64,000 bases of DNA from a virus. The DNA lies in IMG/VR virus record IMGVR_UViG_3300020204_004581. The stretch is one strand, 5' to 3'. Below the pieces are notes generated by a model. It made no database searches and was not told where the DNA came from. It saw nothing but the letters and a program-made list of their open reading frames with translations. Of the stretch, positions 21,909-37,823 are shown in pieces (within the stretch, counting starts at the first letter, position 1; each line of letters starts with the position of its first letter). The position numbers were made by a program, and so were the translations under genes.

Positions 21909-22742
21909 TTATCTCATACCCACACAAGATACATTTTGATAATTCAACTTGTAACCTCTGTCAATCAAATAATTTTCAAAAATTTTATTCTGTTCTTCAC
22001 TCATATTCTCGTGTTCGAACATCACCAACTTTGGTAAAAGATGATCTGGCATCGACATCAAAATTTTACTATCATATCCCTCAACGTCAGTGTGAATCCA
22101 ATCTATTGACTCCAAGGTTAATTTATCAATTAGACTTTCTATAGTAACTGACTCTCTAACACTGGATTTAATTTCCTCCGTTTCCCATTTTCGGATTACT
22201 CTTTCAACTATTGAATTGGTATAACCGAATCCTCCCTCGAAAAACTCGACTGGTTGACCGTCGTAACTTACAATCGAATTTACAAGATTGACATTCATTA
22301 AATCACCAAGGTTTTCTTTAAGACTATTGAATTGTTTTTCAGACCCTTCCACTAAAATCGCGTCGGTAATATTTTTAATAACGCATGGTACCCATTCTCC
22401 AAAAAGACCATCATGTGTACCAACCGCAATGCCTGTAGGTCTTCTACCTTCTTTTGTAATTTCAACACAGTAATAGTAAAATGTTTTGTATAACTCACTT
22501 CCATGATATCTTACATCCCATTGTTTGAATGTGACCAATTGTCCGTTGGCATCATGAATCAACGTGTCATTCATTTCATTATTTTTAAACTCAGCCCACC
22601 AATTATCATTTAATTTACATGTCCAAATCTCCTTTCCATTTACCTGAGATCTGATTGATAATTTTAGAGGTAATTTAAAAAGTGTCGAAACACCTTTAGT
22701 TTCCACACGTATTTTCTTATTTGAATAATCTATGTTGATCAT
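21909..22742 (-). CDS. FkbM-family SAM methyltransferase with an N-terminal beta domain
   Basis: VGTHDG, ILVEG, IDWIHTDVEGYD, FEH motifs. Confidence 0.8.
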   Translation of the reverse strand: MINIDYSNKKIRVETKGVSTLFKLPLKLSIRSQVNGKEIWTCKLNDNWWAEFKNNEMNDTLIHDANGQLVTFKQWDVRYHGSELYKTFYYYCVEITKEGRRPTGIAVGTHDGLFGEWVPCVIKNITDAILVEGSEKQFNSLKENLGDLMNVNLVNSIVSYDGQPVEFFEGGFGYTNSIVERVIRKWETEEIKSSVRESVTIESLIDKLTLESIDWIHTDVEGYDSKILMSMPDHLLPKLVMFEHENMSEEQNKIFENYLIDRGYKLNYQNVSCVGMR

Positions 22743-23695
22743 GATAATCCTATTTTATTTTCCCAAAATTCAACAAATTCTTTAACGGTTTTATCATCAA
22801 TTATTTGGAGTTCTTTTAGGTAATCTGGTGCAAGGCCAATTGTTTTGTTAGCCCAACTTATATCATCTAAACCATATGCAACACCAAACATTTGTATGGG
22901 GTTGTTTAATCGATATTCTGTAGATGTCATTTGTTTACCATAATCTTCTGATAAAGAAAAAGCGTTTTGATTTTCCTCCCAAGATGCTCCTTGGTTTAAA
23001 ATAATTGCTTTACACCCACATAATACTGCTGCTATAGTAAAAAAACTTTTTTGATCATAAGTTAAAAAGTATTCATATTTGTTGAGTTGTTCTCTCAGGT
23101 AGTCGAAAGCACCACTTGTTTTCCATTCCCCTAAATCAAATGAGTTAAAATATTTGAATATTTCATGTCCGTTTGGAGGTGTGTTCTTATGTAATAAATG
23201 ACAAAAGCCTTTTCTGCTTTCATTATTTATGACATATAACTTATCAAAATAATAATTTAAAACTGTTAGTTTTCTTTTAATAACACTCTTGAATGTCTTG
23301 AAGTCTCCAAAATTAAAATAAACATCATTATCACCATACATTTCCTCGATATGTTTTTCGGTGTGATATAAAATCCACCTTGAAACGTGTTGGGTGTTAA
23401 ATGGATTACCTTCAATAATTTGAGGATATATTGATATTGTTTTGTTTATAGGGTAGTGGAAGGTTTCCCAAGTCCAATCTGTTTCAGGATGATTAAGTCT
23501 ATTGCCCTGAGATTTAATTATTTTTATATTTTCATGTGGAAATTCAGGTTGACAAAATATGAATACATTATGTCCGGTTTCAGCCAGCTTAAAAGCTAAT
23601 TTATGCAAGGCAACAATTCCTCCTGTCATAACCTGAGCAAAATTTACATGTAATCCAACAATAAAGTTTAACTTATCGTTATCAGGTAATTGCAT
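22739..23695 (-). CDS. putative glycosyltransferase (GT-B-like)
   Basis: N-terminal TGGIVALHKLA..L..GHNV motif and C-terminal F.TYD..SF...AA.LCGC; sits in the sugar cluster. Confidence 0.55.
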   Translation of the reverse strand: MQLPDNDKLNFIVGLHVNFAQVMTGGIVALHKLAFKLAETGHNVFIFCQPEFPHENIKIIKSQGNRLNHPETDWTWETFHYPINKTISIYPQIIEGNPFNTQHVSRWILYHTEKHIEEMYGDNDVYFNFGDFKTFKSVIKRKLTVLNYYFDKLYVINNESRKGFCHLLHKNTPPNGHEIFKYFNSFDLGEWKTSGAFDYLREQLNKYEYFLTYDQKSFFTIAAVLCGCKAIILNQGASWEENQNAFSLSEDYGKQMTSTEYRLNNPIQMFGVAYGLDDISWANKTIGLAPDYLKELQIIDDKTVKEFVEFWENKIGLS

Positions 23696-24285
23696 TATTT
23701 AATTATTTTTGCCGGTACTCCAACGTATATTCCTGGTTCATTAATGTTTTTTACTACTCCGGCATTTAATCCTATAGTAACATTATCGCAAATAGTTATT
23801 TTTTGTCTAACAGAAGCATTCGTTCCAAAATAAACACATTCTCCTATATTACAATTACCTGATATTTTAGCACCAGGAGCAGTTGTAAAATAATCACCAA
23901 TTCTACAATCATGTCCTATAGTAGTATGTAAATTTAAATGAGTATGTTCACCAATTATACAATTAGTAGTTATAACAGCACCAGCACATACAATACTGCC
24001 TTTTCCAATTTCTACATCATTACCTAAAATTTCTGCTGATGGATGAATATAGCTAAAATATTTGGTTTCTTTAGGTAATCGACTAACTATTTCTTTTCTT
24101 GCTACTCCATCACCAATAGCAATTAAAACCTCATATTCATTTGGGTTGAATTCTGAAAGTGGAAAAATAAATTTGTTGTTAGGAGTATAATATTTGTCAT
24201 CAACAAAACATTTCATTATAAAATCACCGATATGGGCTTTTACTTCATCAGCAAACCCACCGGCACCAATTAGTGCTCTTTTCAT
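23695..24285 (-). CDS. NeuD/PglD-family sugar acetyltransferase
   Basis: IGAGGFA, AIGD, IHPSA, hexapeptide repeats, IGHD, GVPAK. Confidence 0.92.
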   Translation of the reverse strand: MKRALIGAGGFADEVKAHIGDFIMKCFVDDKYYTPNNKFIFPLSEFNPNEYEVLIAIGDGVARKEIVSRLPKETKYFSYIHPSAEILGNDVEIGKGSIVCAGAVITTNCIIGEHTHLNLHTTIGHDCRIGDYFTTAPGAKISGNCNIGECVYFGTNASVRQKITICDNVTIGLNAGVVKNINEPGIYVGVPAKIIK

Positions 24286-24926
24286 TGTTTATAAATTTCG
24301 AATTTTGATAGATCAGGATATGGTAATTCTAAATCTTCATTATGTTTAGGGTTACCTTTTAAATCATAAAACTGAGTCATCATCAACAACCCTCTAACTG
24401 CTAATTCTGGCATCATATAAAAATTCCATCCTAACATATCAAAATGATCATCATGGTATGAGGTTTCTCTTCTACCACTGAATCTAGCGCGTTTAAACCA
24501 TAGCATAGCTTCATAATCATCAGTTAATATAGCTCCACCTTTACTTAATTTAAGCGTTTTATAGGGACCAGTAAACGACACACACATATGAGTTCCATAA
24601 ACATACATGTCTGTAGTAAATCGTAATGCTGAATCTATAACATTGCTTGGAAATAATCTATATGCTCCTTTAATTGTATTTCCTTCAACAGGAGTGAAAT
24701 TGACTTTATAACCAGCATGGATGATTTCGCAAGGAACTGAAGGATATGTTCTTGACGGACAATCTATAAACTCGGTCTCAAATGATTTTTTTATATTTTT
24801 TTCGTAATAGAGAGCTAAGAAAAGTGCATTACTCATATTATCAAGTGCAATTGCATATGGTGCACCTGTATAATCACATAAAGCTTTTTCGAAGTCTTCG
24901 GTAATTTTGTATACTCCTTGAGCCAT
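24282..24926 (-). CDS. DegT/DnrJ/EryC1/StrS-family PLP sugar aminotransferase (short form)
   Basis: FEKALCDYTGAPYAIAL, IDSA, SFTGPYK (PLP Lys), GGAILTDD, GWNFYM. Confidence 0.85.
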   Translation of the reverse strand: MAQGVYKITEDFEKALCDYTGAPYAIALDNMSNALFLALYYEKNIKKSFETEFIDCPSRTYPSVPCEIIHAGYKVNFTPVEGNTIKGAYRLFPSNVIDSALRFTTDMYVYGTHMCVSFTGPYKTLKLSKGGAILTDDYEAMLWFKRARFSGRRETSYHDDHFDMLGWNFYMMPELAVRGLLMMTQFYDLKGNPKHNEDLELPYPDLSKFEIYKQ

Positions 24927-24940
24927 AATAAGTGTTTTAC

Positions 24941-24980
24941 TGATTGAAAAATATAATATTTTTTTTACATTTCAATCAAA
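24941..24980. promoter_or_regulatory. divergent overlapping promoter region with a 9-bp inverted repeat
   Basis: tgattgaaa (24941-24949) / tttcaatca (24970-24978). Near-consensus TTTG-N21-TATATTTT on the minus strand and ATTG-N19-TACATTTC on the plus strand. Confidence 0.45.
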
Positions 24981-24990
24981 TATTCCCCAA

Positions 24991-27276
24991 ATGACCAAAA
25001 TATACGGACACGGTTCTTATGTAGGAAACACCGGATATAACCAACATACAAGAGATTTCTTTAGACATCTTTCAAAGTATTACCAAATTAAATTTAGAAA
25101 CTTTACAGTCGGCAACTCGTGGAAAGGTTACAACTTAACTCCTCACGATGGTGAGCATTATTTCAATAAGACTGATAGGGAAATACTATACGAACAAATT
25201 CTATGGGATAATAGAGAACAAGGAAAAAGAAGTAACTACAAAATATATCCCGACCCTACAAAAGAATTTGATCATGATCTGAATATTGTTCTATGTGAAA
25301 CAAACCATCACCTTTTCTACGATGAATATGATGGTCCAAAAATCGCCTATAATGTTTGGGAATCAACCTTACAACCTCAGGGATATTTTAATAAATTATT
25401 GGAGTTTGATGAGTTGTGGGTACCATCCAAGTGGCAAAGAGATTGTACAATTGCTCAAGGGTATCCTACAAATAAAATCAAAGTCGTTCCTGAAGGTGTT
25501 GACGTACATACATTCTATCCCGATGAAACCATAACTCATCCACTTACAAAAGATAAGTTTACTTTCTTTGTAGCTGGTAGATGGGATTATAGAAAATCAA
25601 CCAAAGAAATAATTGAAACTTTTATAAAAACATTCGATAAAAAAGCACCTGTCGAACTGATTATTTCTGTGGACAATCCATTCTCAAATGATGGTCTTAA
25701 GACAACCGAGGATCGATTGAAAGATTTTGGTCTTGTGGATGACCGAATTAGAATTTTACATTTCCCTCCGAGAGATGAATATATCAGTTTGCTAAAATCT
25801 TGTAGTGTATTTGTTTCATGTGCCAGATCTGAAGGTTGGAACCTACCTTTAATTGAAGCGATGGCTTGTGGAACTCCTTCAATATATTCTGATTGCTCAG
25901 GTCAATTGGAATTTGCATCAGGTCGTGGAATTCCTGTTAAAATCAGTCACGAACTTCCTGTAAGTGCCAGTACATATAACCATTTCAATGAGAATGTTGG
26001 AAATTATTATGAACCTGACTTTCAGGACCTTTCTGAAAAAATGTTGCTAGCATATGAGAAATACGAAACATTCAAAAAACTTGCAATCGTTGAATCAAAA
26101 TACATTAGAGAAGAATTCAGTTGGGAAAATGTTGCTGAAATAGGATACGATACTATTTCCAAATTCATGGACAAACAAAACAGTTTTCCAAAGAAACCTA
26201 TTGAGAAAAACAAAATTAATGTATCTTATTTGGACGGACCGAGAGTTGAAATCTTAGGTAAAAAATCTGAAACTTATAAAGTAGAATTTATCAACAAGGA
26301 TACAGGAGATGTAGTGTATTCGGAAATTATCAAAAACAACATGTGGGCCGCTTCAAGTAAGAAATATTTTATACCATGGCAAATAAAAATTAATGGATCT
26401 GTTGTAGATGAATTGAATTTGGAAGGAAAAGAAGTAATGATTTGTTTGGAGTCAAAAAGTTTGGGTGACACCATAGCATGGACCCCATACGTTGTAGAGT
26501 TTCAGAAAAAACATAAGTGTAAAGTAATATTCTCGAGTTTCCACAATCATTTCTTCGAAAAACTTCAAGCTTACAAAGACATCAAATTTATAAAACCAGG
26601 TCAGTCTCATTCCTGTCACGCACTTTATAGGATAGGGTGGTTCAAAAAGGATGGAAGATGGGAGGATTATGACAAATATCCAACTCAAGTTAATACGATT
26701 CCCTTACAACAAACTGCAACAGATATTTTAGGACTGCCATACGAAGAAGTTAATTACGGTTTGGACTTTCCACCATCCAAAAGACCTATTGAAAAACCAT
26801 ATGTGGTATTCGGTCCAAATGCAACTTCAGGATGCAAAGAATGGGATTACGAAAATTGGTCAACTCTCTCAAAAATGTTGAGAGAAATTGGCTACGAAGT
26901 TGTTACACTAACACAAATAGAGTTTCATTTACCAAATACTAAAAATATTAACGGTAAAGGTCTTGAGGTAGCCGCGAACTATCTACATCACGCTTCTGCT
27001 TTCATCGGTCTCGGGTCAGGTCTTTCTTGGTTCAATTGGGCTATAGGAAAAAAGACTTTCATGATCAATGGGTTTACAAGACCCGGACATGAATTCAATT
27101 CAAATTGTGTTAAAATATTCAATGATAACACCTGCATATTCTGTTGGAATGATGAGGTACATGTTTTTGATGCTGGAGATTGGGATTGGTGTCCTGTCTA
27201 TAAAGGAACGAAAAAACAACACGTTTGTCAAAGATCAATAACACCTATAAATGTTTTCAACACATTAAATTTATGA
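24991..27276 (+). CDS. fusion of a GT4 glycosyltransferase and an Aah/TibC-type (BAHT) protein O-heptosyltransferase
   Basis: N half: GRWDYRK, SEGWNLPLIEAMACG (GT4 EX7E). C half from about 26212: BAHT N-terminal beta domain, SLGDTIAW, FIGLGSGLSW, and the iron finger CIFCWN..DWDWCP..QHVC. Confidence 0.88.
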   Translation: MTKIYGHGSYVGNTGYNQHTRDFFRHLSKYYQIKFRNFTVGNSWKGYNLTPHDGEHYFNKTDREILYEQILWDNREQGKRSNYKIYPDPTKEFDHDLNIVLCETNHHLFYDEYDGPKIAYNVWESTLQPQGYFNKLLEFDELWVPSKWQRDCTIAQGYPTNKIKVVPEGVDVHTFYPDETITHPLTKDKFTFFVAGRWDYRKSTKEIIETFIKTFDKKAPVELIISVDNPFSNDGLKTTEDRLKDFGLVDDRIRILHFPPRDEYISLLKSCSVFVSCARSEGWNLPLIEAMACGTPSIYSDCSGQLEFASGRGIPVKISHELPVSASTYNHFNENVGNYYEPDFQDLSEKMLLAYEKYETFKKLAIVESKYIREEFSWENVAEIGYDTISKFMDKQNSFPKKPIEKNKINVSYLDGPRVEILGKKSETYKVEFINKDTGDVVYSEIIKNNMWAASSKKYFIPWQIKINGSVVDELNLEGKEVMICLESKSLGDTIAWTPYVVEFQKKHKCKVIFSSFHNHFFEKLQAYKDIKFIKPGQSHSCHALYRIGWFKKDGRWEDYDKYPTQVNTIPLQQTATDILGLPYEEVNYGLDFPPSKRPIEKPYVVFGPNATSGCKEWDYENWSTLSKMLREIGYEVVTLTQIEFHLPNTKNINGKGLEVAANYLHHASAFIGLGSGLSWFNWAIGKKTFMINGFTRPGHEFNSNCVKIFNDNTCIFCWNDEVHVFDAGDWDWCPVYKGTKKQHVCQRSITPINVFNTLNL

Positions 27277-27998
27277 TAGACTTGAGTAACTTCAATTGGG
27301 GTTGGATGGATAAACCGACCGAAAGAACTTTAACTAGTGGTAACACGACCAAACCCTATAGTTTGTGGCACAAAGATGCAATAACAAAAGAAATTTTTGA
27401 AGACAAAATGTATGAAAAGTTTTTTTCAGTCGAAGAAGATGATGTTGTTTTGGATATAGGTGCTAGTATTGGTCCTTTCACTTACTCAATTTTGCCAAAG
27501 AAACCTAAACACGTATATTGTTTTGAACCAAGTCCATCTGAAATAGACACACTAAGATTGAATACAAAGAATGGTCCTGTGACCGTTGTTGATAAAGGAA
27601 TTTCAGATGTTGAGGGTGATATTGAGTTTAACTTGTTCGGACTAGATCTATCATCGAACCTTGCTAAATCCACAACTTTTGATAAAATCAGAGAGGAGTA
27701 TAACATAACTAAAATAGACTTTTTAAAGACTGATTGTGAAGGGGGAGAATACAGCATTTTCAACAACAAAAACTTCTTCTGGATTAAAGAAAATGTCAAA
27801 AAAATAGTTGGTGAGTGGCATCTCGAAAATCCAGAAAGAAAACAACAATTCAGAGTTTTTAGAGACACCTACCTAAGGTTATTTCCGAAATCACATGTTT
27901 ATTCAGTAGACGGTGTCGACATTAAATGGGACCTTTGGAATGAACATTTCTTGGAATATTACAAACAAGTAATTCTATACATTGATAATAGGGACTAA
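27273..27998 (+). CDS. FkbM-family SAM methyltransferase
   Basis: ATG 27273 overlaps the upstream TGA; VLDIGASIG, CFEP, IDFLKTDCEGGE. Confidence 0.9.
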   Translation: MIDLSNFNWGWMDKPTERTLTSGNTTKPYSLWHKDAITKEIFEDKMYEKFFSVEEDDVVLDIGASIGPFTYSILPKKPKHVYCFEPSPSEIDTLRLNTKNGPVTVVDKGISDVEGDIEFNLFGLDLSSNLAKSTTFDKIREEYNITKIDFLKTDCEGGEYSIFNNKNFFWIKENVKKIVGEWHLENPERKQQFRVFRDTYLRLFPKSHVYSVDGVDIKWDLWNEHFLEYYKQVILYIDNRD

Positions 27999-28732
27999 GG
28001 GGTTGCAACTCCTCTTTTTGAAACTACGATAGATGCCATTTTGTTTGCATGTATAATGGAATCACCAACATTTTTGGTTCTATAATATTCCAAAATAAAT
28101 GCTGACGTAAAAGTGTCACCAGCTCCACTTACATCAATCGTTTCTTTTGGATCAGGACTTTTGTAAATCACCCCATCAAATCTGGCACCCTTTGAACCTA
28201 AGGTTGTAATAATATTTATACACTCTTTCAAATCTTTATTATTATCACATTCATACTCATTAAGTTTGACGAATGTAAATGAATCAATAATCTCCTTATT
28301 TAGTTTTTTCTTTGAGTCAAGAATTGAAAGTTTAGCTGCCTTTCCAATTTGGATAAGTCTATCATTAGACAAAAACCCCTTATCATAATCACTCACTATG
28401 ACAAGATCTACATTTGACATTAAATTGGTTATAGAGGTATTCAAATTAAATTCTTGTATGTTATTTTCTCCTTCATCAACTCTGAGAAACATGTGATTAC
28501 TTTTTTTGTCCACGTATCTTGTTTTGAAAATGGGTTCCTTTTGACAAAGATGTACAATATCAATCTTTGGGTTCATAGCCGAAACATTTTTTACAACATT
28601 ACCAGACATACCAGGATTTCTGGTTTCTTCAATCGGAGTTATAATAGGTACCGGAGCCTCGGGTGATAATCTTTTGGAATTTGCATAAATGAAAATGTCA
28701 GTACATGTTTCACCAATCACTACTATTTTCAT
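27995..28732 (-). CDS. HldE/RfaE domain I-like heptose-7-phosphate kinase (PfkB family)
   Basis: IGETCTD, RLSPEAPVP, KTR, LRVD, SDYDKG, DVSGAGDTF. Confidence 0.9.
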   Translation of the reverse strand: MKIVVIGETCTDIFIYANSKRLSPEAPVPIITPIEETRNPGMSGNVVKNVSAMNPKIDIVHLCQKEPIFKTRYVDKKSNHMFLRVDEGENNIQEFNLNTSITNLMSNVDLVIVSDYDKGFLSNDRLIQIGKAAKLSILDSKKKLNKEIIDSFTFVKLNEYECDNNKDLKECINIITTLGSKGARFDGVIYKSPDPKETIDVSGAGDTFTSAFILEYYRTKNVGDSIIHANKMASIVVSKRGVATP

Positions 28733-29129
28733 AATTCAAGATTTTTGTTGTGGAGTATAAAGGTAATTTTTCAAAGAAGACAAGTTTTTTGGCATGTTCT
28801 GATCCATAAACTATTTGATCTTTATAGTCATCACCTATGACCATAATATCAGGTTGAAAATCCTTGACGCAATCAATCAGTTCTTGTCTCGAATTAAATA
28901 ATACTACCTCTTTGACAAACCTTAATGATTCAAGCATTTTTTTTCTATCTTCTTGATTATTGAATGGTCGATTAACACCTTTAAGTTCTTTTACTCTCTT
29001 ATCTGTGTCTAACCCTACTCGTACTTCTCCAAAGGAAGATGCAAACTCCAGTAGGTGTATATGACCGACATGTAAAACGTCGAATGTCCCATTTACCCAA
29101 ACCTTAATATTAGATTTCTCTATATTCAT
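28710..29129 (-). CDS. HldE/RfaE domain II-like heptose-1-phosphate nucleotidyltransferase
   Basis: NGTFDVLHVGH, LKGVNRP, GDDY, YSTT. Confidence 0.88.
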   Translation of the reverse strand: MNIEKSNIKVWVNGTFDVLHVGHIHLLEFASSFGEVRVGLDTDKRVKELKGVNRPFNNQEDRKKMLESLRFVKEVVLFNSRQELIDCVKDFQPDIMVIGDDYKDQIVYGSEHAKKLVFFEKLPLYSTTKILNYENSSDW

Positions 29130-29203
29130 AATTTAACTTTCCGATTAGATAGTGGAGCTCGTTGTCCTGACCTCGAACATCCCATGAACTCATACATTAT
29201 CAT
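29126..29203 (-). pseudogene. 25-aa mini-ORF, possibly an in-frame deletion remnant
   Basis: MIMYEFMGCSRSGQRAPLSNRKVKL*, with ATGA overlaps at both ends. Confidence 0.45.
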
Positions 29204-29505
29204 ATCTCTTCGATTCTTTTAGATTTATCACAAATGTATAAATCGTAGTCAGGTTTTTGGTTCATAATTAATTCTGTAAATTTACATCCCCAATCTTTTA
29301 ACTGTTTTTTTGTTATATCAGTGTGGTCTACCTTTGTTGACATTCCTCGGGCGGTGTAATAAATTATTCTATGACCTTCGTCGTATAACTTGTTAATTTT
29401 TTCAATGTTTTCATATAAAGGTTGTGCATCTGAATATGGTTTGGATATGGTACAAATAGTGCCATCAATATCAACGTAAATTATTTTTGACTGTCTCCCT
29501 TCCAT
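29200..29505 (-). CDS. minimal HAD-family phosphatase (capsule-biosynthesis type)
   Basis: YVDIDGT, YTARG, KP.YDLYICDK. Confidence 0.88.
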   Translation of the reverse strand: MEGRQSKIIYVDIDGTICTISKPYSDAQPLYENIEKINKLYDEGHRIIYYTARGMSTKVDHTDITKKQLKDWGCKFTELIMNQKPDYDLYICDKSKRIEEI

Positions 29506-29885
29506 ACTCTATAAGAATCTGAATCAAAATGTTGTGTTGATACTTCGAACACTTCTCCATCTGTTAATGCCTCCAATTGGTGTGGTTGACCTGGTAATTG
29601 TCTTACAGTATCTCCAGGTTTCAAATTGATTTCCATTACCTCGGCAGTTTCAACATCAATCCATCTATAAATAAATTGACCTAAATTGACATACCAAGTT
29701 TCATCCTTGATCATATGGTAGTGCATAGAAAACTTAGCACCTTTCTTGAAGACTAAAACTTTACCACAATATAGTGGGTCATTTATGATTATAATTTCAT
29801 GTCCCCATCCCTTAGGAATTTTGCATTCGGGACATTCATGTACGTTAATTACTGTTGGTTTTTTCATTTTGAACTTTTGTTTCAA
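29481..29885 (-). CDS. cupin, sugar(-phosphate) isomerase-like
   Basis: KGWGHE, SMHYH..KDETW, PHQL, EVST..FDSDSYR. Confidence 0.85.
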   Translation of the reverse strand: MKQKFKMKKPTVINVHECPECKIPKGWGHEIIIINDPLYCGKVLVFKKGAKFSMHYHMIKDETWYVNLGQFIYRWIDVETAEVMEINLKPGDTVRQLPGQPHQLEALTDGEVFEVSTQHFDSDSYRVWKGDSQK

Positions 29886-29918
29886 AATAAACTTAACCCA
29901 TGCACTTGTAATGTGAAT

Positions 29919-29946
29919 AAAAAAGGGAGGTTTAATCCTCCCTTTT
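29919..29946 (-). terminator. intrinsic terminator (potentially bidirectional)
   Basis: aaaagggagg-tttaat-cctccctttt 10-bp stem, 11 nt downstream of the stop at 29958. Confidence 0.85.
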
Positions 29947-29957
29947 AGTTTATAAAT

Positions 29958-32900
29958 TTATCTTTGGTATTCAACTTTAATTTTATCAATATCTTTACGT
30001 TCACCGAAGATTAAATAAGAGACATTTATATCACCTGTTGTCGAATCAATGTAAACCTTGTTATCTTCAACTTTCAATATAAAATGTTGAGTTCCGTTTC
30101 CGATTGGAGTAAGTTGTACTGTAATTGACTCTTCATGAACTAATCCTGTCCAATATTCAGGTAACTCAATAACATTTTTGTTGGTATTGCCTCTAAGGTA
30201 AACCCCATTTTCAGGTCCTTCCAATACACCGTATCTCAGTCTGAAACCTTCTTTTGTTGGGTGTGTAATATCAAAGGACTTTTGGGTCGCGGAGAAGTTT
30301 CCATCGATTATGAAATCTGTACCATCCCATGTTACTTTCTCCTCGCATTGAATATCCTGAGATCCAGTACATGTTAGCATGTAGTTGTTGTTGTTATTCA
30401 GAATTGTTGCAGCTCCTGATGTTCCTGAAGAACCTGAAGATCCGCTCGAACCTGATGAACCTGAACTACCTGAAGTACCACTAGATCCTGATGTACCTGA
30501 TGAACCTGAAGATCCACTTGTTCCACTAGATCCTGATGTTCCTGAAGAACCTGAAGATCCGCTCGTACCTGAGGAACCTGAGCTACCTGAAGTACCACTA
30601 GATCCTGAAGTACCTGATGAACCTGAAGATCCGCTCGTACCTGAAGAACCTGAAGATCCACTTGTTCCACTAGATCCTGATGAACCTGATGTTCCTGAAG
30701 AACCTGAAGATCCGCTCGAACCTGAACTACCTGAAGTACCACTAGATCCTGATGTACCTGATGAACCTGATGTTCCTGAAGAACCTGAAGATCCGCTCGA
30801 ACCTGATGAACCTGAACTACCTGAAGTACCACTAGATCCTGAAGTACCTGATGAACCTGATGTTCCTGAAGAACCTGAAGAACCTGAAGATCCGCTCGTA
30901 CCTGATGAACCTGAACTACCTGAAGTACCACTAGATCCTGAAGTACCTGATGAACCTGATGTTCCTGAAGAACCTGAGCTACCACTTGTTCCTGAAGACC
31001 CTGAGCTTCCTGAAGTTCCACTTGTTCCTGAAGAACCTGAGCTACCACTTGTTCCTGAAGACCCTGAGCTTCCCGAAGTTCCATCTGTTCCATTACTACC
31101 ACTTGTTCCTGAGCTTCCGCTAGTACCCGAACTACCACTTGTTCCTGAAGAACCTGAAGATCCGCTCGAACCTGATGAACCTGAACTACCTGAAGTACCA
31201 CTAGATCCTGATGAACCTGATGTTCCTGAAGAACCTGATGAGCCTGAGCTTCCCGAAGTTCCATCTGTTCCATTACTACCACTTGTTCCTGAGCTTCCAC
31301 TAGAACCTGAAGTGCCACTTGTTCCTGAAGAACCTGAGCTACCACTTGTTCCTGAAGACCCTGAGCTTCCTGAAGTTCCACTAGATCCTGAGGTACCTGA
31401 TGAACCTGATGTTCCTGAAGAACCTGAGCTACCACTTGTTCCTGAAGACCCTGAGCTACCACTTGTTCCTGAAGACCCTGAGCTACCACTCGATCCTGAA
31501 GTCCCATCTGTACCATTACTACCACTTGTTCCTGAAGTGCCACTAGACCCTGACGAACCACTGGTACCGCTTGAACCTGATGATCCACTTGTACCACTGG
31601 ATCCTGATGTTCCTGAGGAACCACTTGTGCCACTAGATCCTGAAGATCCGTCTGTACCGTTACTACCACTTGTTCCTGATGTTCCAGAACTTCCTGATGA
31701 ACCACTCGTACCTGAACTTCCTGATGTTCCAGAGGTTCCACTAGATCCTGAAGATCCGCTCGTGCCGCTTGAGCCTGAGCTACCTGAGCTACCATCAGTT
31801 CCTGATGAACCCGAAGAGCCTGAGCTACCTGATGTTCCTGAACTACCTGAGCTACCTGATGTTCCTGAGGAACCACTTGTGCCGCTAGATCCTGAAGATC
31901 CACTTGTGCCGCTAGATCCTGAAGATCCACTTGTGCCGCTAGATCCTGAACTACCATCAGTTCCTGATGAACCCGAAGAGCCTGAGCTACCATCAGTTCC
32001 TGATGATCCTGAGCTACCTGATGTTCCTGAGGAACCACTTGTGCCACTAGATCCTGAAGATCCACTTGTGCCGCTAGATCCTGAAGATCCACTTGTGCCG
32101 CTAGATCCTGAACTACCATCAGTTCCTGATGAACCCGAAGAGCCTGAGCTACCATCAGTTCCTGATGATCCTGAGCTACCGCTTGTTCCTGATGAACCCG
32201 ATGAGCCAGATGTACCTGAGCTACCACTTGTTCCTGATGAACCAGATGTTCCTGAGGTTCCGCTAGAGCCTGATGTTCCAGATGAACCAACACAAACTCC
32301 TTGATATGTAATTGAAAAACCTACGAGGTCTGGACCGGAAACTGTTCCAACTATCGCACAAATTTCTTGTGTTGTACCGTTTGCGATAGAAGCACTAACT
32401 GATGTTCCTGAACAATCAGTATACGTGTAATTTTGGGAAACTCCAGTTGTATTCGAAATTAAAAAACTACCACATGTTTGTCCACTAGTTCCTGATGTGC
32501 CAGATGTTCCTGAGCTACCACTTGAACCACTTGTTCCTGAGCTTCCGCTAGAACCAGATGTTCCTGATGAGCCAGATGTTCCTGAAGAACCTGAGCTACC
32601 ACTTGTACCTGAAGAACCTGAGCTACCACTAGTTCCTGAAGAACCAGATGTCCCTGAAGAACCATTTGTTCCTGATGTTCCATCTGTACCATTACTACCG
32701 CTTGTTCCTGAAGAACCACTTGTACCTGAGCTTCCTGATGTCCCACTTGAACCGTCTGTACCATTACTACCTGAAGTACCAGAAGTTCCTGAAGATCCGC
32801 TTGTACCACTTGATCCTGAAGTACCATCTGTACCGTTGGAGCCTGACGTACCTGAGGATCCACTTGTACCACTTGATCCTGAAGTACCATCTGTACCATT

Positions 32901-35900
32901 ACTACCACTTGTTCCTGACGTTCCCGATGAACCAGAAGTTCCTGAAGAACCTGATGTTCCATCTGTACCATTACTTCCACTTGTTCCTGATGTACCAGAT
33001 GAGCCAGAAGTTCCGCTCGAACCACTTGTACCATCTGTACCGTTGCTTCCTGAAGTACCAGAAGTTCCTGAAGATCCACTTGTTCCGCTAGATCCTGAAG
33101 TGCCATCTGTACCGTTGCTTCCTGAAGTACCAGAAGTTCCTGAAGATCCACTTGTTCCGCTAGATCCTGAAGTGCCATCTGTACCATTACTTCCTGATGT
33201 ACCAGATGAACCAGAAGTTCCGCTCGAACCACTTGTTCCATCCGTACCATTACTTCCTGAAGTGCCTGATGTACCAGATGAACCAGATGTTCCTGAGGAA
33301 CCACTTGTTCCGTCTGTACCGTTACTACCACTTGTTCCTGATGTGCCAGATGATCCAGAAGTTCCTGAAGAACCTGAGGTACCATCTGTACCATTAGATC
33401 CTGAAGTTCCTGATGTTCCACTTGAACCAGATGTTCCTGAAGAACCACTTGTTCCGTCTGTACCGTTACTTCCACTTGTTCCTGATGTTCCACTCGAGCC
33501 AGATGTTCCTGAAGAACCAGATGTCCCTGAAGAACCATTTGTTCCTGATGTTCCATCTGTACCATTACTACCACTTGTTCCGGAAGATCCACTTGTACCG
33601 CTAGATCCTGAAGTTCCTGAAGAACCTGATGTTCCATCTGTACCATTACTTCCGCTTGTTCCTGATGTACCTGATGAGCCAGAGGTTCCTGAAGAACCTG
33701 ATGTTCCATCTGTACCATTACTTCCGCTTGTTCCTGATGTACCTGATGAGCCAGAGGTTCCTGAAGAACCGCTTGTTCCATCCGTACCATTACTACCACT
33801 TGTTCCTGATGTGCCAGATGATCCTGATGTACCTGAGCTACCATCAGTTCCTGACGAGCCTGAACTACCTGAAGTGCCTGAACTACCTGAAGTACCATCA
33901 GTTCCTGATGTACCTGAGCTACCACTTGTTCCTGATGAGCCAGAAGTTCCTGAGGAACCTGAGCTTCCACTTGTTCCTGATGAACCAGAAGTTCCTGAAG
34001 AACCTGAGCTACCGCTTGTTCCAGATGAACCTGAGCTTCCTGAGGAACCACTTGTTCCACTCGAGCCTGATGTTCCAGAACTTCCAGCATCGGCTACTAA
34101 ATTCCAATCAGCTCCTCCTGCTGGTATTTCGTTTTGATTATCATTTATAGCAATGTATGAGCTTCCACTATAATATACAACATCATTCCTTGAGTAAAAT
34201 GTACCCATGGAGAACTCTCCCTCCCATGCGAAACTTGTTCCTGAAGAACCACTTGTTCCACTAGATCCTGAAGATCCACTCGTACCGCTAGAGCCTGAGC
34301 TACCTGAAGTACCTGAGCTACCATCAGTTCCTGATGAGCCTGATGAGCCTGATGTTCCTGAACTACCATCAGTTCCTGATGTGCCTGAGCTACCATCAGT
34401 TCCTGATGTTCCTGAAGAACCACTTGTCCCACTAGATCCTGATGTACCTGATGAGCCTGAGCTACCATCAGTTCCTGATGAGCCTGATGAGCCTGATGTT
34501 CCTGAACTACCATCAGTTCCTGATGTGCCTGAGCTACCATCAGTTCCTGATGTTCCTGAAGAACCACTTGTTCCACTAGATCCTGATGTACCATTAACAC
34601 CACTTAAACCTGATGTTCCTGATGTACCTGAGCTACCATCAGTTCCTGACGAGCCTGAACTACCTGAAGTACCTGAACTACCTGAAGTACCATCAGTTCC
34701 TGATGTACCTGATGAGCCAGAAGTTCCTGAAGAACCGCTTGTTCCATCCGTACCATTACTACCACTTGTTCCTGATGTGCCAGATGATCCTGATGTGCCT
34801 GAGCTACCATCAGTTCCTGACGAGCCTGAACTACCTGAAGTACCTGAACTACCTGAAGTACCATCAGTTCCTGATGTACCTGATGAGCCAGAAGTTCCTG
34901 AAGAACCGCTTGTTCCATCCGTACCATTACTACCACTTGTTCCTGATGTGCCAGATGATCCTGATGTGCCTGAGCTACCATCAGTTCCTGATGAGCCTGA
35001 TGAGCCTGATGTTCCTGAACTACCATCAGTTCCTGATGTGCCTGAGCTACCATCAGTTCCTGATGTTCCTGATGATCCACTTGTTCCACTAGATCCTGAT
35101 GTACCTGATGAACCTGATGTTCCTGAGCTACCATCAGTTCCTGATGAGCCTGATGAGCCTGATGTTCCTGAACTACCATCAGTTCCTGATGTGCCTGAAC
35201 TACCATCAGTTCCTGATGTTCCTGAAGAACCACTTGTTCCACTAGATCCTGAAGATCCACTCGTACCGCTAGAGCCTGAGCTACCTGAAGTGCCTGAGCT
35301 ACCATCAGTTCCTGATGAGCCTGATGAGCCTGATGTTCCTGAACTACCATCAGTTCCTGATGTGCCTGAGCTACCATCAGTTCCTGATGTGCCTGAAGAA
35401 CCACTTGTTCCACTAGATCCTGAAGATCCACTCGTACCGCTAGAGCCTGAGCTACCTGAAGTGCCTGAGCTACCATCAGTTCCTGAAGTACCTGAGCTAC
35501 CATCAGTTCCTGATGTACCTGAGCTACCTGAAGTACCTGAGCTACCATCAGTTCCTGATGTTCCTGAAGAACCACTTGTTCCACTAGATCCTGATGTACC
35601 TGATGAACCTGATGTTCCTGAGCTACCATCAGTTCCTGATGAGCCTGATGAGCCTGAACTACCATCAGTTCCTGATGTGCCTGAGCTACCATCAGTTCCT
35701 GATGTTCCTGAAGAACCACTTGTTCCACTAGATCCTGAAGATCCACTTGTGCCGCTAGATCCTGAACTACCATCAGTTCCTGATGAACCCGAAGAGCCTG
35801 AGCTACCATCAGTTCCTGATGAACCCGAAGAGCCTGAGCTACCATCAGTTCCTGATGATCCTGAGCTACCATCAGTTCCTGATGTTCCTGAAGAACCACT

Positions 35901-37823
35901 TGTTCCACTAGATCCTGAAGATCCACTTGTGCCGCTAGATCCTGAACTACCATCAGTTCCTGATGAACCCGAAGAGCCTGAGCTACCATCAGTTCCTGAT
36001 GAACCCGAAGAGCCTGAGCTACCATCAGTTCCTGATGATCCTGAGCTACCTGAAGTACCTGAGCTACCATCAGTTCCTGATGTTCCTGAGCTACCATCAG
36101 TTCCTGATGAGCCTGATGAGCCTGATGTTCCTGAACTACCTGAAGTACCAGAAGAACCATTTTGATTTACTATGTTAATAGTACCAATCATACCCGCATG
36201 ATTAGCACATTGATATACTATACTGCTTGGAGCATCCGCTGGAACTCTATAAATTATTAAAACACTAGTGTTAGCTTTTCCATTTACAGGATCGTTGTTG
36301 GTTGTACCCGGCACAGCTGATGTATCACCTGATGATAATCTTAAAGCAAACGGATGACTTGTTGAAACAGCACTTACATTAAAGTAATACAACTGTCCCC
36401 TTACTATAGTAAGAGTCGGAAAGTTACCAGCATATCCACTAATAGTATAATTTGAACCTGCACTAGTTACTGTAAATAATTGACCGCCTTCAATACCACT
36501 TGTTCCACTAGATCCTGAAGATCCACTCGTACCGCTAGAGCCTGAGCTACCTGAGCTACCTGAGCTACCTGAGCTACCTGAGCTACCATCAGTTCCTGAT
36601 GAGCCTGAGCTACCATCAGTTCCTGATGTTCCTGAAGAACCACTTGTTCCACTAGATCCTGATGTACCTGATGAACCTGATGTTCCTGAACTACCATCAG
36701 TTCCTGATGAACCCGAAGAGCCTGAGCTACCATCAGTTCCTGATGAACCCGAAGAGCCTGAGCTACCATCAGTTCCTGATGTTCCTGAAGAACCACTTGT
36801 TCCACTAGATCCTGATGTACCTGATGAACCTGATGTTCCTGAACTACCATCAGTTCCTGATGAACCCGAAGAGCCTGAGCTACCATCAGTTCCTGATGAA
36901 CCCGAAGAGCCTGAGCTACCATCAGTTCCTGATGTTCCTGAAGAACCACTTGTTCCACTAGATCCTGATGTACCTGATGAACCTGATGTTCCTGAACTAC
37001 CATCAGTTCCTGATGAACCCGAAGAGCCTGAAGTACCATTAACCCCACTTATACCTGAAGTTCCACTTGTTCCTGATGAACCTGAGCTACCACTTGTTCC
37101 TGAATTGATCCCTGTCACCTGTACGGAGGTTCCATCACTATTATTCAAAGTAAGTGTAGATGTCCCACTATTGTAAGTTCCTCCGGTTACTGTGCCTGTA
37201 AACCCTGTAATTGAAACTGATGTTCCATCATTATCTGATAAAACTAAAGTTGTAGTCGCAGAAAAATATGTACCACCTGTAATTACGGTGTCGTTCATAT
37301 TTGCAATTCTCCAACGTGCATTTGCTCTAGTAACCCCACCAACACCTTCAATTGTAGATCCTGTCCATACATTTACGAAATTTTGACCTGCAACTGTATT
37401 TGTATAACACTGATATCCCGTTTCTGAGTCTCCAACCAATGAACCCGAAGCTTCCGCAGCATCCCACAATGCGGCGTAGTTGTCTATCTCATATTGATAC
37501 GTCGTCTCAGCAGAGATGACGTATACCATCATACCTAAACGTCTTCTACCACAAGAAATCTCGTCGGTTTCTATGGTCACTGCGTTTGGTGAAGAAAGCG
37601 GTGTTCCATATGTGAAATTAATTGGTATTGTATTTCCTGAATACAAAATTGTACCTGAACTACCATCAGGAATCGTAAATTCGAGGTCCTGATGAGAAAA
37701 AACTTCCATGTAGCCTCCAATGGAGTACACGCTGAAGTTGGTACCTGTATTGTTATCTAACGTGACGGTATCTGCGCCTTGTAAGATAACTGCTGAAGTG
37801 GGATTTCGATACTCAAAGCTCAT
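29958..37823 (-). CDS. giant Gly-X-X (GSS/GTS/GTD/GSN) repeat fibre protein with inserted globular modules
   Basis: 2621-aa uninterrupted ORF with Gly at every third position over about 2000 aa. Inserts are cupredoxin-like, CBM5/12-like and Cys modules. The C-terminal KSFDITHP..LRYGVLEGPE.GVY.RG domain is typical of aquatic phage fibres. Confidence 0.85.
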   Translation of the reverse strand: MSFEYRNPTSAVILQGADTVTLDNNTGTNFSVYSIGGYMEVFSHQDLEFTIPDGSSGTILYSGNTIPINFTYGTPLSSPNAVTIETDEISCGRRRLGMMVYVISAETTYQYEIDNYAALWDAAEASGSLVGDSETGYQCYTNTVAGQNFVNVWTGSTIEGVGGVTRANARWRIANMNDTVITGGTYFSATTTLVLSDNDGTSVSITGFTGTVTGGTYNSGTSTLTLNNSDGTSVQVTGINSGTSGSSGSSGTSGTSGISGVNGTSGSSGSSGTDGSSGTSGSSGTSGSSGTSGSSGTSGTDGSSGSSGSSGTDGSSGSSGSSGTDGSSGTSGSSGTSGSSGTSGSSGTSGTDGSSGSSGSSGTDGSSGSSGSSGTDGSSGTSGSSGTSGSSGTSGSSGTSGTDGSSGSSGTDGSSGSSGSSGSSGSSGSSGTSGSSGSSGTSGIEGGQLFTVTSAGSNYTISGYAGNFPTLTIVRGQLYYFNVSAVSTSHPFALRLSSGDTSAVPGTTNNDPVNGKANTSVLIIYRVPADAPSSIVYQCANHAGMIGTINIVNQNGSSGTSGSSGTSGSSGSSGTDGSSGTSGTDGSSGTSGSSGSSGTDGSSGSSGSSGTDGSSGSSGSSGTDGSSGSSGTSGSSGSSGTSGSSGTSGTDGSSGSSGTDGSSGSSGSSGTDGSSGSSGSSGTDGSSGSSGTSGSSGSSGTSGSSGTSGTDGSSGTSGTDGSSGSSGSSGTDGSSGTSGSSGTSGSSGTSGSSGTSGTDGSSGTSGSSGTSGTDGSSGTSGTDGSSGTSGSSGSSGTSGSSGSSGTSGSSGTSGTDGSSGTSGTDGSSGTSGSSGSSGTDGSSGTSGSSGSSGTSGSSGSSGTSGSSGTSGTDGSSGTSGTDGSSGTSGSSGSSGTDGSSGTSGSSGTSGSSGTSGSSGTSGTDGSSGTSGTDGSSGTSGSSGSSGTDGSSGTSGSSGTSGTSGSNGTDGTSGSSGTSGSSGTSGTDGTSGSSGTSGSSGSSGTDGSSGTSGSSGTSGTSGSNGTDGTSGSSGTSGSSGTSGTDGTSGSSGTSGSSGSSGTDGSSGTSGTSGLSGVNGTSGSSGTSGSSGTSGTDGSSGTSGTDGSSGTSGSSGSSGTDGSSGSSGTSGSSGTSGSSGTSGTDGSSGTSGTDGSSGTSGSSGSSGTDGSSGTSGSSGSSGTSGSSGSSGTSGSSGTSFAWEGEFSMGTFYSRNDVVYYSGSSYIAINDNQNEIPAGGADWNLVADAGSSGTSGSSGTSGSSGSSGSSGTSGSSGSSGTSGSSGTSGSSGSSGTSGSSGTSGSSGTSGTDGTSGSSGTSGSSGSSGTDGSSGTSGSSGTSGTSGSNGTDGTSGSSGTSGSSGTSGTSGSNGTDGTSGSSGTSGSSGTSGTSGSNGTDGTSGSSGTSGSSGTSGSSGTSGSNGTDGTSGTNGSSGTSGSSGTSGSSGTSGTSGSNGTDGTSGSSGTSGSSGTSGTSGSNGTDGTSGSSGTSGSSGTSGTSGSNGTDGTSGSSGTSGSSGTSGTSGSNGTDGTSGSSGTSGSSGTSGSNGTDGTSGSSGTSGSSGTSGTSGSNGTDGTSGSSGTSGSSGTSGTSGSNGTDGTSGSSGTSGSSGTSGTSGSNGTDGTSGSSGTSGSSGTSGTSGSNGTDGTSGSSGTSGSSGTSGSNGTDGTSGSSGTSGSSGTSGTSGSNGTDGSSGTSGSSGTSGSSGTSGSNGTDGTSGTNGSSGTSGSSGTSGSSGSSGTSGSSGSSGTSGSSGTSGSSGSSGTSGSSGSSGTSGTSGTSGQTCGSFLISNTTGVSQNYTYTDCSGTSVSASIANGTTQEICAIVGTVSGPDLVGFSITYQGVCVGSSGTSGSSGTSGTSGSSGTSGSSGTSGSSGSSGTSGSSGSSGTDGSSGSSGSSGTDGSSGSSGTSGSSGSSGTSGSSGSSGTSGSSGTSGSSGSSGTDGSSGSSGSSGTDGSSGSSGTSGSSGSSGTSGSSGSSGTSGSSGTSGSSGSSGTSGSSGSSGSSGTDGSSGSSGSSGTSGSSGSSGTSGTSGSSGTSGSSGSSGTSGTSGSNGTDGSSGSSGTSGSSGTSGSSGTSGSSGSSGTSGSSGSSGTSGTSGSNGTDGTSGSSGSSGSSGTSGSSGSSGTSGSSGSSGTSGSSGTSGSSGTSGSSGSSGTSGSSGSSGTSGTSGSSGSSGTSGSNGTDGTSGSSGSSGSSGTSGSSGSSGTSGSSGSSGSSGSSGSSGTSGSSGTSGSSGTSGSNGTDGTSGSSGSSGTSGSSGSSGTSGTSGSSGSSGTSGSSGSSGTSGSSGTSGSSGTSGSSGSSGTSGSSGSSGSSGTSGSSGTSGSSGTSGSSGSSGSSGSSGSSGTSGSSGTSGSSGTSGSSGSSGSSGSSGTSGSSGSSGTSGSSGSSGTSGSSGSSGTSGSSGTSGSSGSSGTSGSSGSSGTSGSSGTSGSSGSSGTSGSSGTSGSSGSSGSSGSSGSSGTSGAATILNNNNNYMLTCTGSQDIQCEEKVTWDGTDFIIDGNFSATQKSFDITHPTKEGFRLRYGVLEGPENGVYLRGNTNKNVIELPEYWTGLVHEESITVQLTPIGNGTQHFILKVEDNKVYIDSTTGDINVSYLIFGERKDIDKIKVEYQR
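30410..37100 (-). repeat. 9-nt-periodic coding repeat with higher-order duplications
   Basis: For example 35701-35870 equals 35881-36050 (180-nt period); the blocks starting at 34630 and 34801 have a 171-nt period. Confidence 0.9.

Follow-up and report, generated by a model that had tools for sequence, protein, structure and literature searches.

A putative phage-encoded O-glycosylation module that pairs a TibC/Aah-family enzyme with a proline-free collagen-like fibre

Introduction

Do some tailed phages glycosylate their own fibres and, if so, on which residue and with which sugar? This question is raised by a 64,000-nucleotide stretch of the viral record IMGVR_UViG_3300020204_004581 (called the window here, by which the whole stretch at its full length is meant). 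In this window an island of genes at positions 21909-37823 brings together a 761-residue fusion protein ending in a domain of the BAHT family, to which TibC and Aah of E. coli belong, a cassette of four small genes resembling a sugar-activation pathway, and a gene for a giant protein of 2621 residues. An original prediction, made from the DNA letters, had proposed that the phage makes its own heptose donor and hyper-glycosylates its own virion fibres. The analysis described here favours, with reasonable confidence, a phage-encoded protein O-glycosylation module that is aimed at the phage's own collagen-like fibre and uses a donor of the ADP-heptose type.

To our knowledge, the only role described for BAHT enzymes is the virulence-associated modification of autotransporter adhesins in enterobacteria. 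Full-text searches turned up, within the literature covered, no paper that brings BAHT or heptosyltransferase together with phages or with collagen-like proteins; in a recent study of large Flavobacteriia-type phages from aquatic habitats core glycosyltransferases are mentioned, not the BAHT family.

A TibC/Aah-family domain in a phage fusion protein

To which family does the C-terminal half of the fusion protein belong? Residues 408-759 match the NCBI equivalog model TIGR04414 (hepto_Aah_TibC) with 234.8 bits against a cut-off of 200, the 761-residue protein also passes the Pfam TibC_1st beta-barrel model (27.3 bits, cut-off 27), and phmmer aligns the domain over its whole length with the sequence of the TibC crystal structure 4RAP (E 2.8e-43). 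An AlphaFold model of the domain, calculated from an eight-sequence alignment (predicted local distance difference test, pLDDT, 84), superimposes on 4RAP with a template modelling score (TM) of 0.83 (E 5e-27), and the top structural matches are TibC chains throughout, whereas the glycosyltransferase (GT) family 9 enzymes of lipopolysaccharide (LPS) synthesis, WaaC and WaaF, reach a TM of 0.40-0.53 (E about 1e-7). The motifs named in the original prediction are present, SLGD with D493, FIGLGSGLSW with W680 and four cysteines at 715, 718, 734 and 746. In TibC, Asp110 is the catalytic base, Thr226 and Lys230 contact the beta-phosphate, Trp305 contacts O4 of the heptose, and Cys339, Cys342, Cys358 and Cys370 bind iron (PMC4358343). 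The corresponding catalytic and donor-contacting residues D493, T612, K616 and W680 are kept in the phage enzyme, and its four cysteines align with the iron ligands, predicting a four-Cys iron finger. By hidden Markov model (HMM), fold and catalytic residues this is a true BAHT domain, as had been claimed, and since the TIGR04414 score lies above the cut-off and the TM of 0.83 compares with 0.40-0.53, it is not an LPS enzyme of the GT9 type.

The N-terminal part of the protein is a GT4 domain. Wherever a viral relative has a BAHT domain of at least 46% identity, and also in Microcystis phage Mel-JY01, GT4 either belongs to the same protein or is encoded next to it, which suggests that GT4 and BAHT perform consecutive steps on a single acceptor. 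In most close relatives, the GT4-BAHT gene is directly followed by a second, short BAHT paralogue of about 295 residues (31-33% identical) that does not contain the N-terminal beta-barrel; no such paralogue was found in the window.

A proline-free collagen-like protein as putative virion fibre

What is the giant protein next to the enzyme? With 979 Ser and 384 Thr, 1363 together, its 2621 residues agree with the predicted count of well over 1000, and 17 prolines are found in the whole chain. Its repeats strictly follow the Gly-X-Y pattern, for 670 triplets in blocks of 204, 642, 537 and 627 residues, and match the Pfam Collagen model (Table 1); the protein is therefore collagen-like and not merely Ser/Thr-rich. 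Position X is occupied by Ser in 353 and by Thr in 310 triplets (663 of 670), and position Y by Ser in 569, by Asp in 72 and by Asn in 26. Of the Ser/Thr-repeat fibre that had been predicted, the Ser/Thr-rich repeats stand, but the repeat is of the collagen type and not an autotransporter beta-helix, which the prediction had not foreseen. Since a collagen helix rises by 0.286 nm per residue, the four blocks together would amount to about 575 nm of helix.

Several observations bear on the role of this protein. The globular insert between the first two repeat blocks matches PHROG families of tail fibre and baseplate proteins, the C-terminal 149 residues match phrog_17490, a recurrent phage family (1e-40), and homologues of the N- and C-termini are found in the related loci L007, L002 and L031. 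The island sits inside the structural region of the window, and baseplate J/W genes lie 17 kb from the fibre gene on the same strand. The tail-fibre matches and the place in the structural block support the reading as a putative virion fibre. A single-sequence model of the C-terminal domain reached a pLDDT of 47, too low for use.

The window itself is, judged by its genes, a stretch of a large tailed phage, with baseplate J/W proteins, a class II ribonucleotide reductase, a DnaB-type helicase, a primase, a UvsX-like recombinase and an SbcC-like nuclease. The closest described baseplate proteins, only 25-27% identical, come from Flavobacterium phages, a huge uncultured phage and Mel-JY01, and one structural protein of the window contains SprB repeats; these similarities make a host among the Bacteroidota (Flavobacteria-type) likely. 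All features listed in the original prediction for the island were found in their places.

BAHT genes and G-[S/T]-S arrays occur together

Is the neighbourhood of enzyme and repeat peculiar to this window? In 25 of 42 viral contigs encoding relatives of the BAHT domain (38-66% identity), a Gly-X-Y array of at least 30 triplets lies within 10 kb of the BAHT gene, and in all but the pair L005/L006 the arrays are proline-free G-[S/T]-S repeats with mostly Ser at Y. The exception is only apparent, as a G-S-S array is present in L005/L006 too, located some 11 kb away from the BAHT gene where the contig ends. The pairing spans the identity tiers 60-66%, 48-53% and 38-41%, and in the tree it occurs in at least four deep viral clades separated by well-supported branches. 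It is also found in a cultured phage, Mel-JY01, in which the gene for a 1226-residue GT4-x-BAHT fusion is preceded, at a distance of 1.7 kb, by the end of a G-T-S/G-S-S open reading frame (ORF) of at least 1016 residues.

The pairing holds in the reverse direction as well. The only criterion for picking viral records was a match to a degenerate DNA pattern encoding eight G-[S/T]-S triplets (at least 120 stretches among the matches listed), and the whole records were searched with the BAHT model. A BAHT was found in 23 of the 72 viral records picked in this way among the matches listed, 21 of them above the curated cut-off, versus only 4 of 50,697 reference phage records (Fisher p about 1e-63, for samples that are not independent). 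Among the matches listed, records at least 90% complete encode a BAHT in six of six cases when they contain true arrays (78-597 triplets) and in none of five when they do not (Fisher p = 0.002), these five having spurious matches only, of 8-12 triplets and of the G-C-S, G-T-T or Arg-rich type. The island is thus linked to Gly-[S/T]-Ser genes in relatives, an outcome in favour of the original prediction; of the claim that the phage hyper-glycosylates its own fibres, the pairing with such structural genes is found in both directions, and the sugar on the proteins remains predicted.

A cellular parallel is provided by two Methylobacter isolate chromosomes and several metagenome-assembled genomes (MAGs), in which about 1 kb separates the genes for stand-alone BAHTs without the thumb of TibC (see below) from those for secreted proteins with G-T-S/G-T-A arrays. 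As to the residue, the near-invariant Ser preceding each Gly would be the likeliest site of modification, which fits since TibC modifies Ser and not Thr, for example Ser313 in N-S-G-G (PMC4358343). Taken as a claim of its own, that the 2621-residue fibre is the acceptor of the BAHT enzyme appears quite probable to us.

Two related contigs of 295 kb and 233 kb have G-S-S arrays running off their termini (L049/L053, G003:1-1636, and the far end of G003 and G002). In assemblies of these phages, breaks tend to fall within the fibre gene, and the fibre can therefore be hidden from neighbourhood surveys.

Which sugar would be transferred?

The window matters for the question of the donor because a candidate cassette of four heptose-activation genes lies between the fibre gene and the enzyme gene. 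Directly downstream of the fibre gene, the genes for a cupin, a minimal HAD phosphatase, a nucleotidyltransferase and a kinase form one co-directional run, and the four match the four steps from sedoheptulose-7-phosphate to ADP-D,D-heptose, the natural donor of TibC. No epimerase gene (HldD) is found among the cassette genes, so the product would be the D,D form. The split HldE-like genes, the HAD gene and the cupin gene named in the original prediction are all present. The best NCBIfam match of the kinase is TIGR02198 (rfaE_dom_I) and its best solved relative is HldA (4E84, E 6e-11); for the nucleotidyltransferase the best match is TIGR02199 (rfaE_dom_II), with TagD next at 68.7 bits. The GAGD and HxGH motifs are intact, and the best PHROG matches of both proteins likewise point to the heptose pathway. 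The HAD protein has weak matches to EcbF/BcbF and BT0820, and the cupin's neighbours in the Atlas are clusters of viral cupins that include small proportions of the Lyx_isomer and MannoseP_isomer families. Moreover, HldC-like and HldA-like genes adjoin BAHT in two more lineages, both distant, namely L039 and the beta-proteobacterial MAG locus L199, and the characterised BAHT and GT9-fold members all use ADP-heptose (PMC4358343; fold ranking). For the window's phage we therefore lean, if not strongly, towards heptose as the sugar, with the cassette as an auxiliary supply.

The strongest competing explanation keeps the fibre as acceptor and changes the sugar: the donor would be, for example, ADP-glucose, a UDP-hexose or another nucleoside diphosphate sugar, and the cassette would feed the GT4 domain or the GT-B-like protein of the island or make a non-heptose donor. 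We consider this unlikely, yet it has to be taken seriously, as a number of observations on the enzyme and on the cassette weigh against the module as we propose it. In TibC, Arg286 contacts N1 of the adenine of ADP-heptose, exchange for Ala abolished or largely diminished activity, and a beta-hairpin thumb (Phe265, Val266) links dimers into a dodecamer (PMC4358343). When the window domain was aligned with 37 viral BAHTs and four plasmid-borne bacterial BAHTs, three of which adjoin autotransporter, AIDA-repeat or ESPR genes, the position of Arg286 was found to be A, V, L, T or I in 38 of 38 viral enzymes (A661 in the window) and Arg in all four bacterial ones, and the thumb segment to comprise 7 residues in 34 of the 38 viral enzymes, including that of the window, versus 16 in the bacterial enzymes. 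Both losses are separable, since some cellular thumbless BAHTs retain the Arg286 equivalent. As the adenine contact is replaced, the donor nucleotide of the viral enzymes may differ from that of TibC, and the shortening of the thumb from 16 to 7 residues makes it improbable that they work by the ring mechanism of TibC. On the other hand, the Asp, Thr/Ser, Lys and Trp and all four Cys are kept in 38 of 38 viral BAHTs, hence including the Trp305 and Thr/Lys phosphate contacts. Judged from these residues, the sugar-phosphate chemistry of the viral enzymes is probably the same as in TibC and their nucleotide recognition and ring assembly probably are not. Because all 38 are without Arg286 and most are without the dodecamer thumb, the viral BAHTs sampled form a distinct subfamily; the four bacterial enzymes constitute one clade on a long branch of the tree with 100/100 support. 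The designation Aah/TibC-type in the original prediction is therefore correct for family membership and overstates sameness.

What does the cassette itself say? The kinase scores 114.3 bits against an equivalog cut-off of 345 for TIGR02198, whereas full-length HldA proteins of the host class score 290-360 bits, and the nucleotidyltransferase scores 91.5 bits against 181.5 for TIGR02199, with mixed PDB matches (ECT, TagD and the cytidylyltransferase 5X9Q) that are mostly CDP-alcohol enzymes. The functions of the cupin and the HAD protein are candidates only, and a scan of window ORFs found no GmhA of the SIS type. Most BAHT phages are without HldA/HldC genes, and in five close relatives, searched over their whole records, the cassette was missing; two of these records are 98-100% complete and three are partial. 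L003 and L036 have the BAHT module directly adjoining the fibre gene, so that the window's lineage seems to have gained the cassette by insertion. In addition, six viral relatives of the kinase (53-56% identity; L177-L182, kinase at 8001-8732) are encoded in smaller phage contigs next to GT2, methyltransferase and glucosaminidase genes, and no BAHT, nucleotidyltransferase, HAD, cupin or Gly-X-Y array was found there. The kinase family is thus not BAHT-specific, and the kinase was rejected as a marker of the module. The predicted self-made heptose donor consequently stands in part: four genes fit four steps, but kinase and nucleotidyltransferase remain below the HldE cut-offs, relatives are without the cassette and the kinase relatives are BAHT-free. 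Against a different sugar speak the retained contacts of the enzyme, the adjacency of HldC/HldA-like genes to BAHT in three separate lineages, the heptose-pathway matches of both enzymes, the precedent of the characterised family members and, finally, the hosts.

From where would relatives without the cassette obtain their donor? Of 101 genomes sampled from the host class, taken as the class around a Lutibacter MAG, 85 encode a full-length HldA-type kinase; the sample includes the unpublished genome G171, on which the count depends by one. This makes a supply by the host credible for the cassette-free relatives, and the idea that their hosts are unable to supply ADP-heptose was rejected.

Three neighbouring observations concern sugar activation in relatives. 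The 'Cytidylyltransferase like protein' of Mel-JY01 was considered as an HldC-like candidate and rejected, as it has no TIGR02199 match and resembles a long protein of L039. In L039, a gene for a 730-residue GT4-methyltransferase-GT25 fusion lies directly upstream of stand-alone BAHT, HldC-like and HldA-like genes and near a terminase gene, in a layout that resembles Mel-JY01. L005, the island of which is without HldA/HldC-like genes, encodes instead a 609-residue fusion of NTP_transferase, HAD-like and kinase-like (EcKL) stretches, which may be an alternative donor-activation enzyme and to this extent favours a different sugar.

Could another molecule be the target?

Alternatively, the fibre might not be the acceptor at all, its adjacency to the enzyme being explained by a shared mobile structural module, and the BAHT enzyme would act on other virion proteins, on host surface proteins or on the three neighbouring giant proteins of the window that carry long (T/S)P(T/S)x linkers, a classic type of O-glycan acceptor. 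Known BAHT acceptors are folded beta-helices and not Gly-X-Y repeats, and the neighbourhood in related phages is partly inherited synteny, which inflates the raw counts of co-occurrence; moreover, many repeat-bearing fragments are without a BAHT, although most of those are less than 40% complete. Because shared ancestry inflates the counts, it is the spread over distant phages and bacteria that carries the argument for the fibre. G-[S/T]-S arrays, not Pro-Thr tracts, are found near BAHT in at least four deep viral clades, in the cyanophage and near cellular BAHTs, the near-complete genomes among the matches listed separate six of six from none of five, and Thr is not modified by TibC. No Pro-Thr tract of the (T/S)P(T/S)x type was found near the BAHT genes in the loci of viral relatives, and the link is therefore specific to the Gly-X-Y repeat. 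Since such tracts do not accompany BAHT genes in relatives, the Pro-Thr-linker giants were rejected as main acceptor, and an acceptor other than the fibre seems improbable to us; other transferases of the island might act on these giants.

That the island is an auxiliary metabolic or host-takeover module, which remodels host LPS or capsule or modifies DNA, for example for superinfection exclusion, is very improbable: glucosylation of DNA and changes of host serotype are known effects of phage glycosyltransferases (reviewed in PMC12619734), the heptose pathway is an LPS-core pathway and PHROGs files the HAD family under auxiliary metabolic genes, but in both fold and sequence the enzyme resembles TibC, which modifies proteins, far more than WaaC and WaaF, the heptosyltransferases of LPS synthesis, the island lies within the structural gene block, co-directional with the fibre gene, and the tight pairing with G-[S/T]-S genes would be left unexplained.

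A variable shell of candidate tailoring genes

The remaining genes of the island (Table 1) could act on a glycan once it is attached to the fibre, as proposed in the reading that we prefer. The first FkbM-family methyltransferase (a) has homologues in the same island of L002, L003, L007, L010 and L036, and a gene of the second type (b) stands beside the BAHT gene in about 12 viral loci. For the 318-residue protein no Pfam, NCBIfam or PHROG match was found, and homologues occur in L003 (59%) and L005 (42%). The best-conserved island protein is a shortened DegT-like protein, with 84-86% identity at equal length in L002, L003 and L005. Compared with PseC (2FN6) it shows two weak stretches, residues 37-103 and 182-242, one of them around the region of the Schiff-base Lys, with about 80 residues missing in between. 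What had been called an aminotransferase is thus DegT-like, but it is shortened to 214 residues and covers the profile only in part.

The islands of relatives carry other chemistry, namely a GT8-methyltransferase, a DUF6625 protein, an esterase, a fusion of a 2-oxoglutarate (2OG)-Fe(II) oxygenase with GT2 and the NTP-transferase-HAD-kinase-like fusion. The gene content is consistent with a conserved core, GT4-BAHT adjoining a G-[S/T]-S fibre, that is surrounded by a variable tailoring shell. The oxygenase-GT2 fusion is encoded in L005 near a collagen-like ORF of the Gly-Pro/Ala-Gln type; it recalls pairs of collagen hydroxylase and glycosyltransferase and may represent another, second way in which phages of this group modify fibres.

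Table 1. Features of the window and of related loci. Positions without a prefix refer to the window; those with a prefix refer to the locus named.
Feature	Position	Strand	Evidence or remark
761-residue fusion protein gene	24991-27276	+	GT4 domain N-terminal, BAHT domain C-terminal
GT4 domain of fusion (retaining glycosyltransferase type)	24991..26190	+	Glycos_transf_1 4.9e-14; EX7E motif (E281-x7-E289)
BAHT (TibC/Aah-like) domain of fusion	26212..27276	+	beta-barrel, GT-B catalytic core, four-Cys finger
2621-residue proline-free collagen-like fibre, proposed glycan acceptor	29958..37823	-	Pfam Collagen (PF01391) 863 bits, 16 stretches
Four Gly-X-Y blocks of fibre	36489-37100, 34233-36158, 32475-34085, 30408-32288	-	globular N-terminus, inserts and C-terminus around the blocks
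Globular insert between first two repeat blocks	36159-36494	-	phrog_677 'baseplate wedge tail fiber protein connector' 2e-21; phrog_30742 'tail fiber protein'
Candidate cupin sugar-phosphate isomerase, 134 residues	29481..29885	-	Cupin_2 27.0 and Lyx_isomer 20.4 bits, both just below cut-offs; phrog_7851 7e-37
Minimal HAD phosphatase (DxDGT), 101 residues	29200..29505	-	PDB 9IQW 'capsule biosynthesis protein' 7e-8; phrog_1238 (phospho-heptose pathway) 2.4e-25
HldC-like nucleotidyltransferase, 139 residues	28710..29129	-	HxGH motif; phrog_7878 'heptose kinase/adenyltransferase' 1.8e-37
HldA-like PfkB sugar-phosphate kinase, 245 residues	27995..28732	-	GAGD motif; phrog_8133 8e-67
FkbM-family methyltransferase (a), candidate glycan O-methylase	21909..22742	-	PF05050 24.7 bits, cut-off 22.7
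318-residue protein, GT-B-like fold a lead only	22739..23695	-	Atlas model resembles WavQ, Glycos_transf_1 and pyruvyl-transferase clusters, TM 0.6-0.73
NeuD/PglD-type sugar N-acetyltransferase	23695..24285	-	TIGR03570 172.4 bits, cut-off 160.8; PglD_N and hexapeptide repeats
Shortened DegT-like protein ('mini-DegT'), 214 residues	24282..24926	-	covers DegT_DnrJ_EryC1 profile positions 24-98 only
FkbM-family methyltransferase (b)	27225..27998	+	PF05050 45.7 bits; TIGR01444 63.3 bits
Three giant proteins with Cys-rich globular modules and long (T/S)P(T/S)Q-type linkers	17277-21635, 37842-39461, 12744-16175	-	1452, 539 and 1143 residues
Short BAHT paralogues in relatives	L002:11083-11967, L003:11089-11967, L005:11080-11976, L010:11059-11946, L013:9605-10501, L036:11083-11964		
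Cellular array proteins	L187:8953-9813, L189:8971-9813, L186:7240-8229, L195:8530-8919		signal peptide or lipoprotein signal, then G-T-S/G-T-A; Methylobacter chromosomes and other proteobacterial MAGs
GT4-methyltransferase-GT25 fusion, 730 residues	L039:518-2710	+	
NTP_transferase, HAD-like and kinase-like fusion, 609 residues	L005:4110-5939	-	
2OG-Fe(II) oxygenase-GT2 fusion	L005:14813-16675	-	
Gly-Pro/Ala-Gln collagen-like ORF	L005:20078-21079	-	

Discussion

How could such a module work? We propose that in the cytoplasm of the infected cell the BAHT domain would attach a sugar from its nucleotide donor to serines in the fibre's Gly-[Ser/Thr]-Ser repeats and that a second sugar would come from the GT4 domain fused to it. 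Tailoring or extension of the glycan would fall to the two FkbM methyltransferases, the GT-B-like protein and the NeuD-type acetyltransferase. The cupin, the small HAD protein, the HldC-like nucleotidyltransferase and the HldA-like kinase would raise the supply of a donor of the ADP-heptose type in its D,D form, and relatives that do not carry the cassette would draw the donor from the host. The case consists of genes and sequences, and the glycan on the fibre is a prediction from them.

The system most similar to the proposed module is the TibC-TibA and Aah-AIDA-I pair of E. coli (TIGR04414; PDB 4RAP/4RB4; PMC4358343), with which the phage enzyme shares the curated HMM family, the fold, the arrangement of beta-barrel, GT-B core and four-Cys finger, and the catalytic Asp, Thr/Lys and Trp. 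In both cases the enzyme gene adjoins that of a highly repetitive Ser-rich surface protein, which in the phage would be modified at many sites in the cytoplasm. In contrast to TibC and Aah, however, the phage enzyme has Arg286 replaced and a thumb of 7 residues, its BAHT domain is fused behind GT4, its carrier is a phage and its proposed acceptor is a Gly-X-Y repeat of the collagen type and not a beta-helix; no autotransporter gene was found in the window, in which the enzyme's neighbour is the collagen-like repeat protein, and the autotransporter-linked bacterial enzymes form their own long-branch clade.

Phage-encoded glycosylation of virions reportedly has a precedent in mycobacteriophages, in which, as Freeman et al. 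(Cell Host Microbe, 2023; cited in PMC12619734) are said to have described, glycans are found on the C-termini of capsid and tail-tube subunits. There, as proposed for the window's phage, phage-encoded glycosyltransferases modify the phage's own structural proteins, but the enzymes are unrelated, and the mycobacteriophages have neither a BAHT nor a collagen-like acceptor nor donor-supply genes. Collagen-like glycoproteins are reportedly known from the exosporium of Bacillus anthracis, where the repeats of BclA are said to carry O-glycans with rhamnose and anthrose (Daubenspeck, 2004), and from the cuticle collagen of Riftia, in which glycosylated Thr with a galactose glycan is said to take over the stabilising role of hydroxyproline (Mann, 1996); both studies appear in the references of PMC11923368. 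Common to these proteins and, as proposed, to the phage fibre are the Gly-X-Y repeat and O-glycans on the hydroxy amino acid of the triplet; unlike the phage repeat, which is a proline-free G-[S/T]-S repeat with a BAHT as candidate enzyme, they have proline-containing GPT or G-X-Thr repeats and employ other enzyme families.

The cassette resembles the split form of HldE, HldA and HldC, together with GmhA and GmhB, in having separate genes for a PfkB kinase and a nucleotidyltransferase of the cytidylyltransferase fold, both with intact motifs, a phosphatase in the operon and no HldD, which agrees with the D,D-heptose form used by TibC. It differs in that its enzymes score far under the equivalog cut-offs, in that the minimal HAD protein is not GmhB, and in that a cupin and not a SIS-fold GmhA is the sole candidate for the isomerase.

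How could a proline-free chain form a stable collagen-like fibre? Collagen triple helices are usually stabilised by proline and hydroxyproline or by charge pairs. A bold extension of our reading, which we offer as speculation and consider rather doubtful as a whole, would be that glycosylation of the Ser before each Gly lets the Gly-[Ser/Thr]-Ser chain fold as a stable triple helix of some 575 nm, the sugar doing what hydroxyproline does elsewhere, as in Riftia, that the donor is self-made with the cupin and the 101-residue HAD protein replacing GmhA and GmhB, and that the viral BAHTs, with neither thumb nor Arg286, are a separate class acting on extended Gly-X-Y chains and not in the form of a dodecamer that encircles a beta-helix.

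Taken together, the island most likely enables the phage to O-glycosylate its proline-free collagen-like fibre by means of a TibC-type enzyme that has lost the thumb, and the donor is probably, if not certainly, ADP-heptose, which the window's phage can help to make. If this is true, large aquatic phages would be the main natural habitat of the BAHT family and the proline-free collagen-type repeat its main acceptor, and a second, mechanistically different case of phage virion glycosylation would be at hand. It would also provide a testable answer to how proline-free Gly-Ser-Ser chains could form stable fibres, and a compact pair of enzyme and tag for dense glycosylation of serines.

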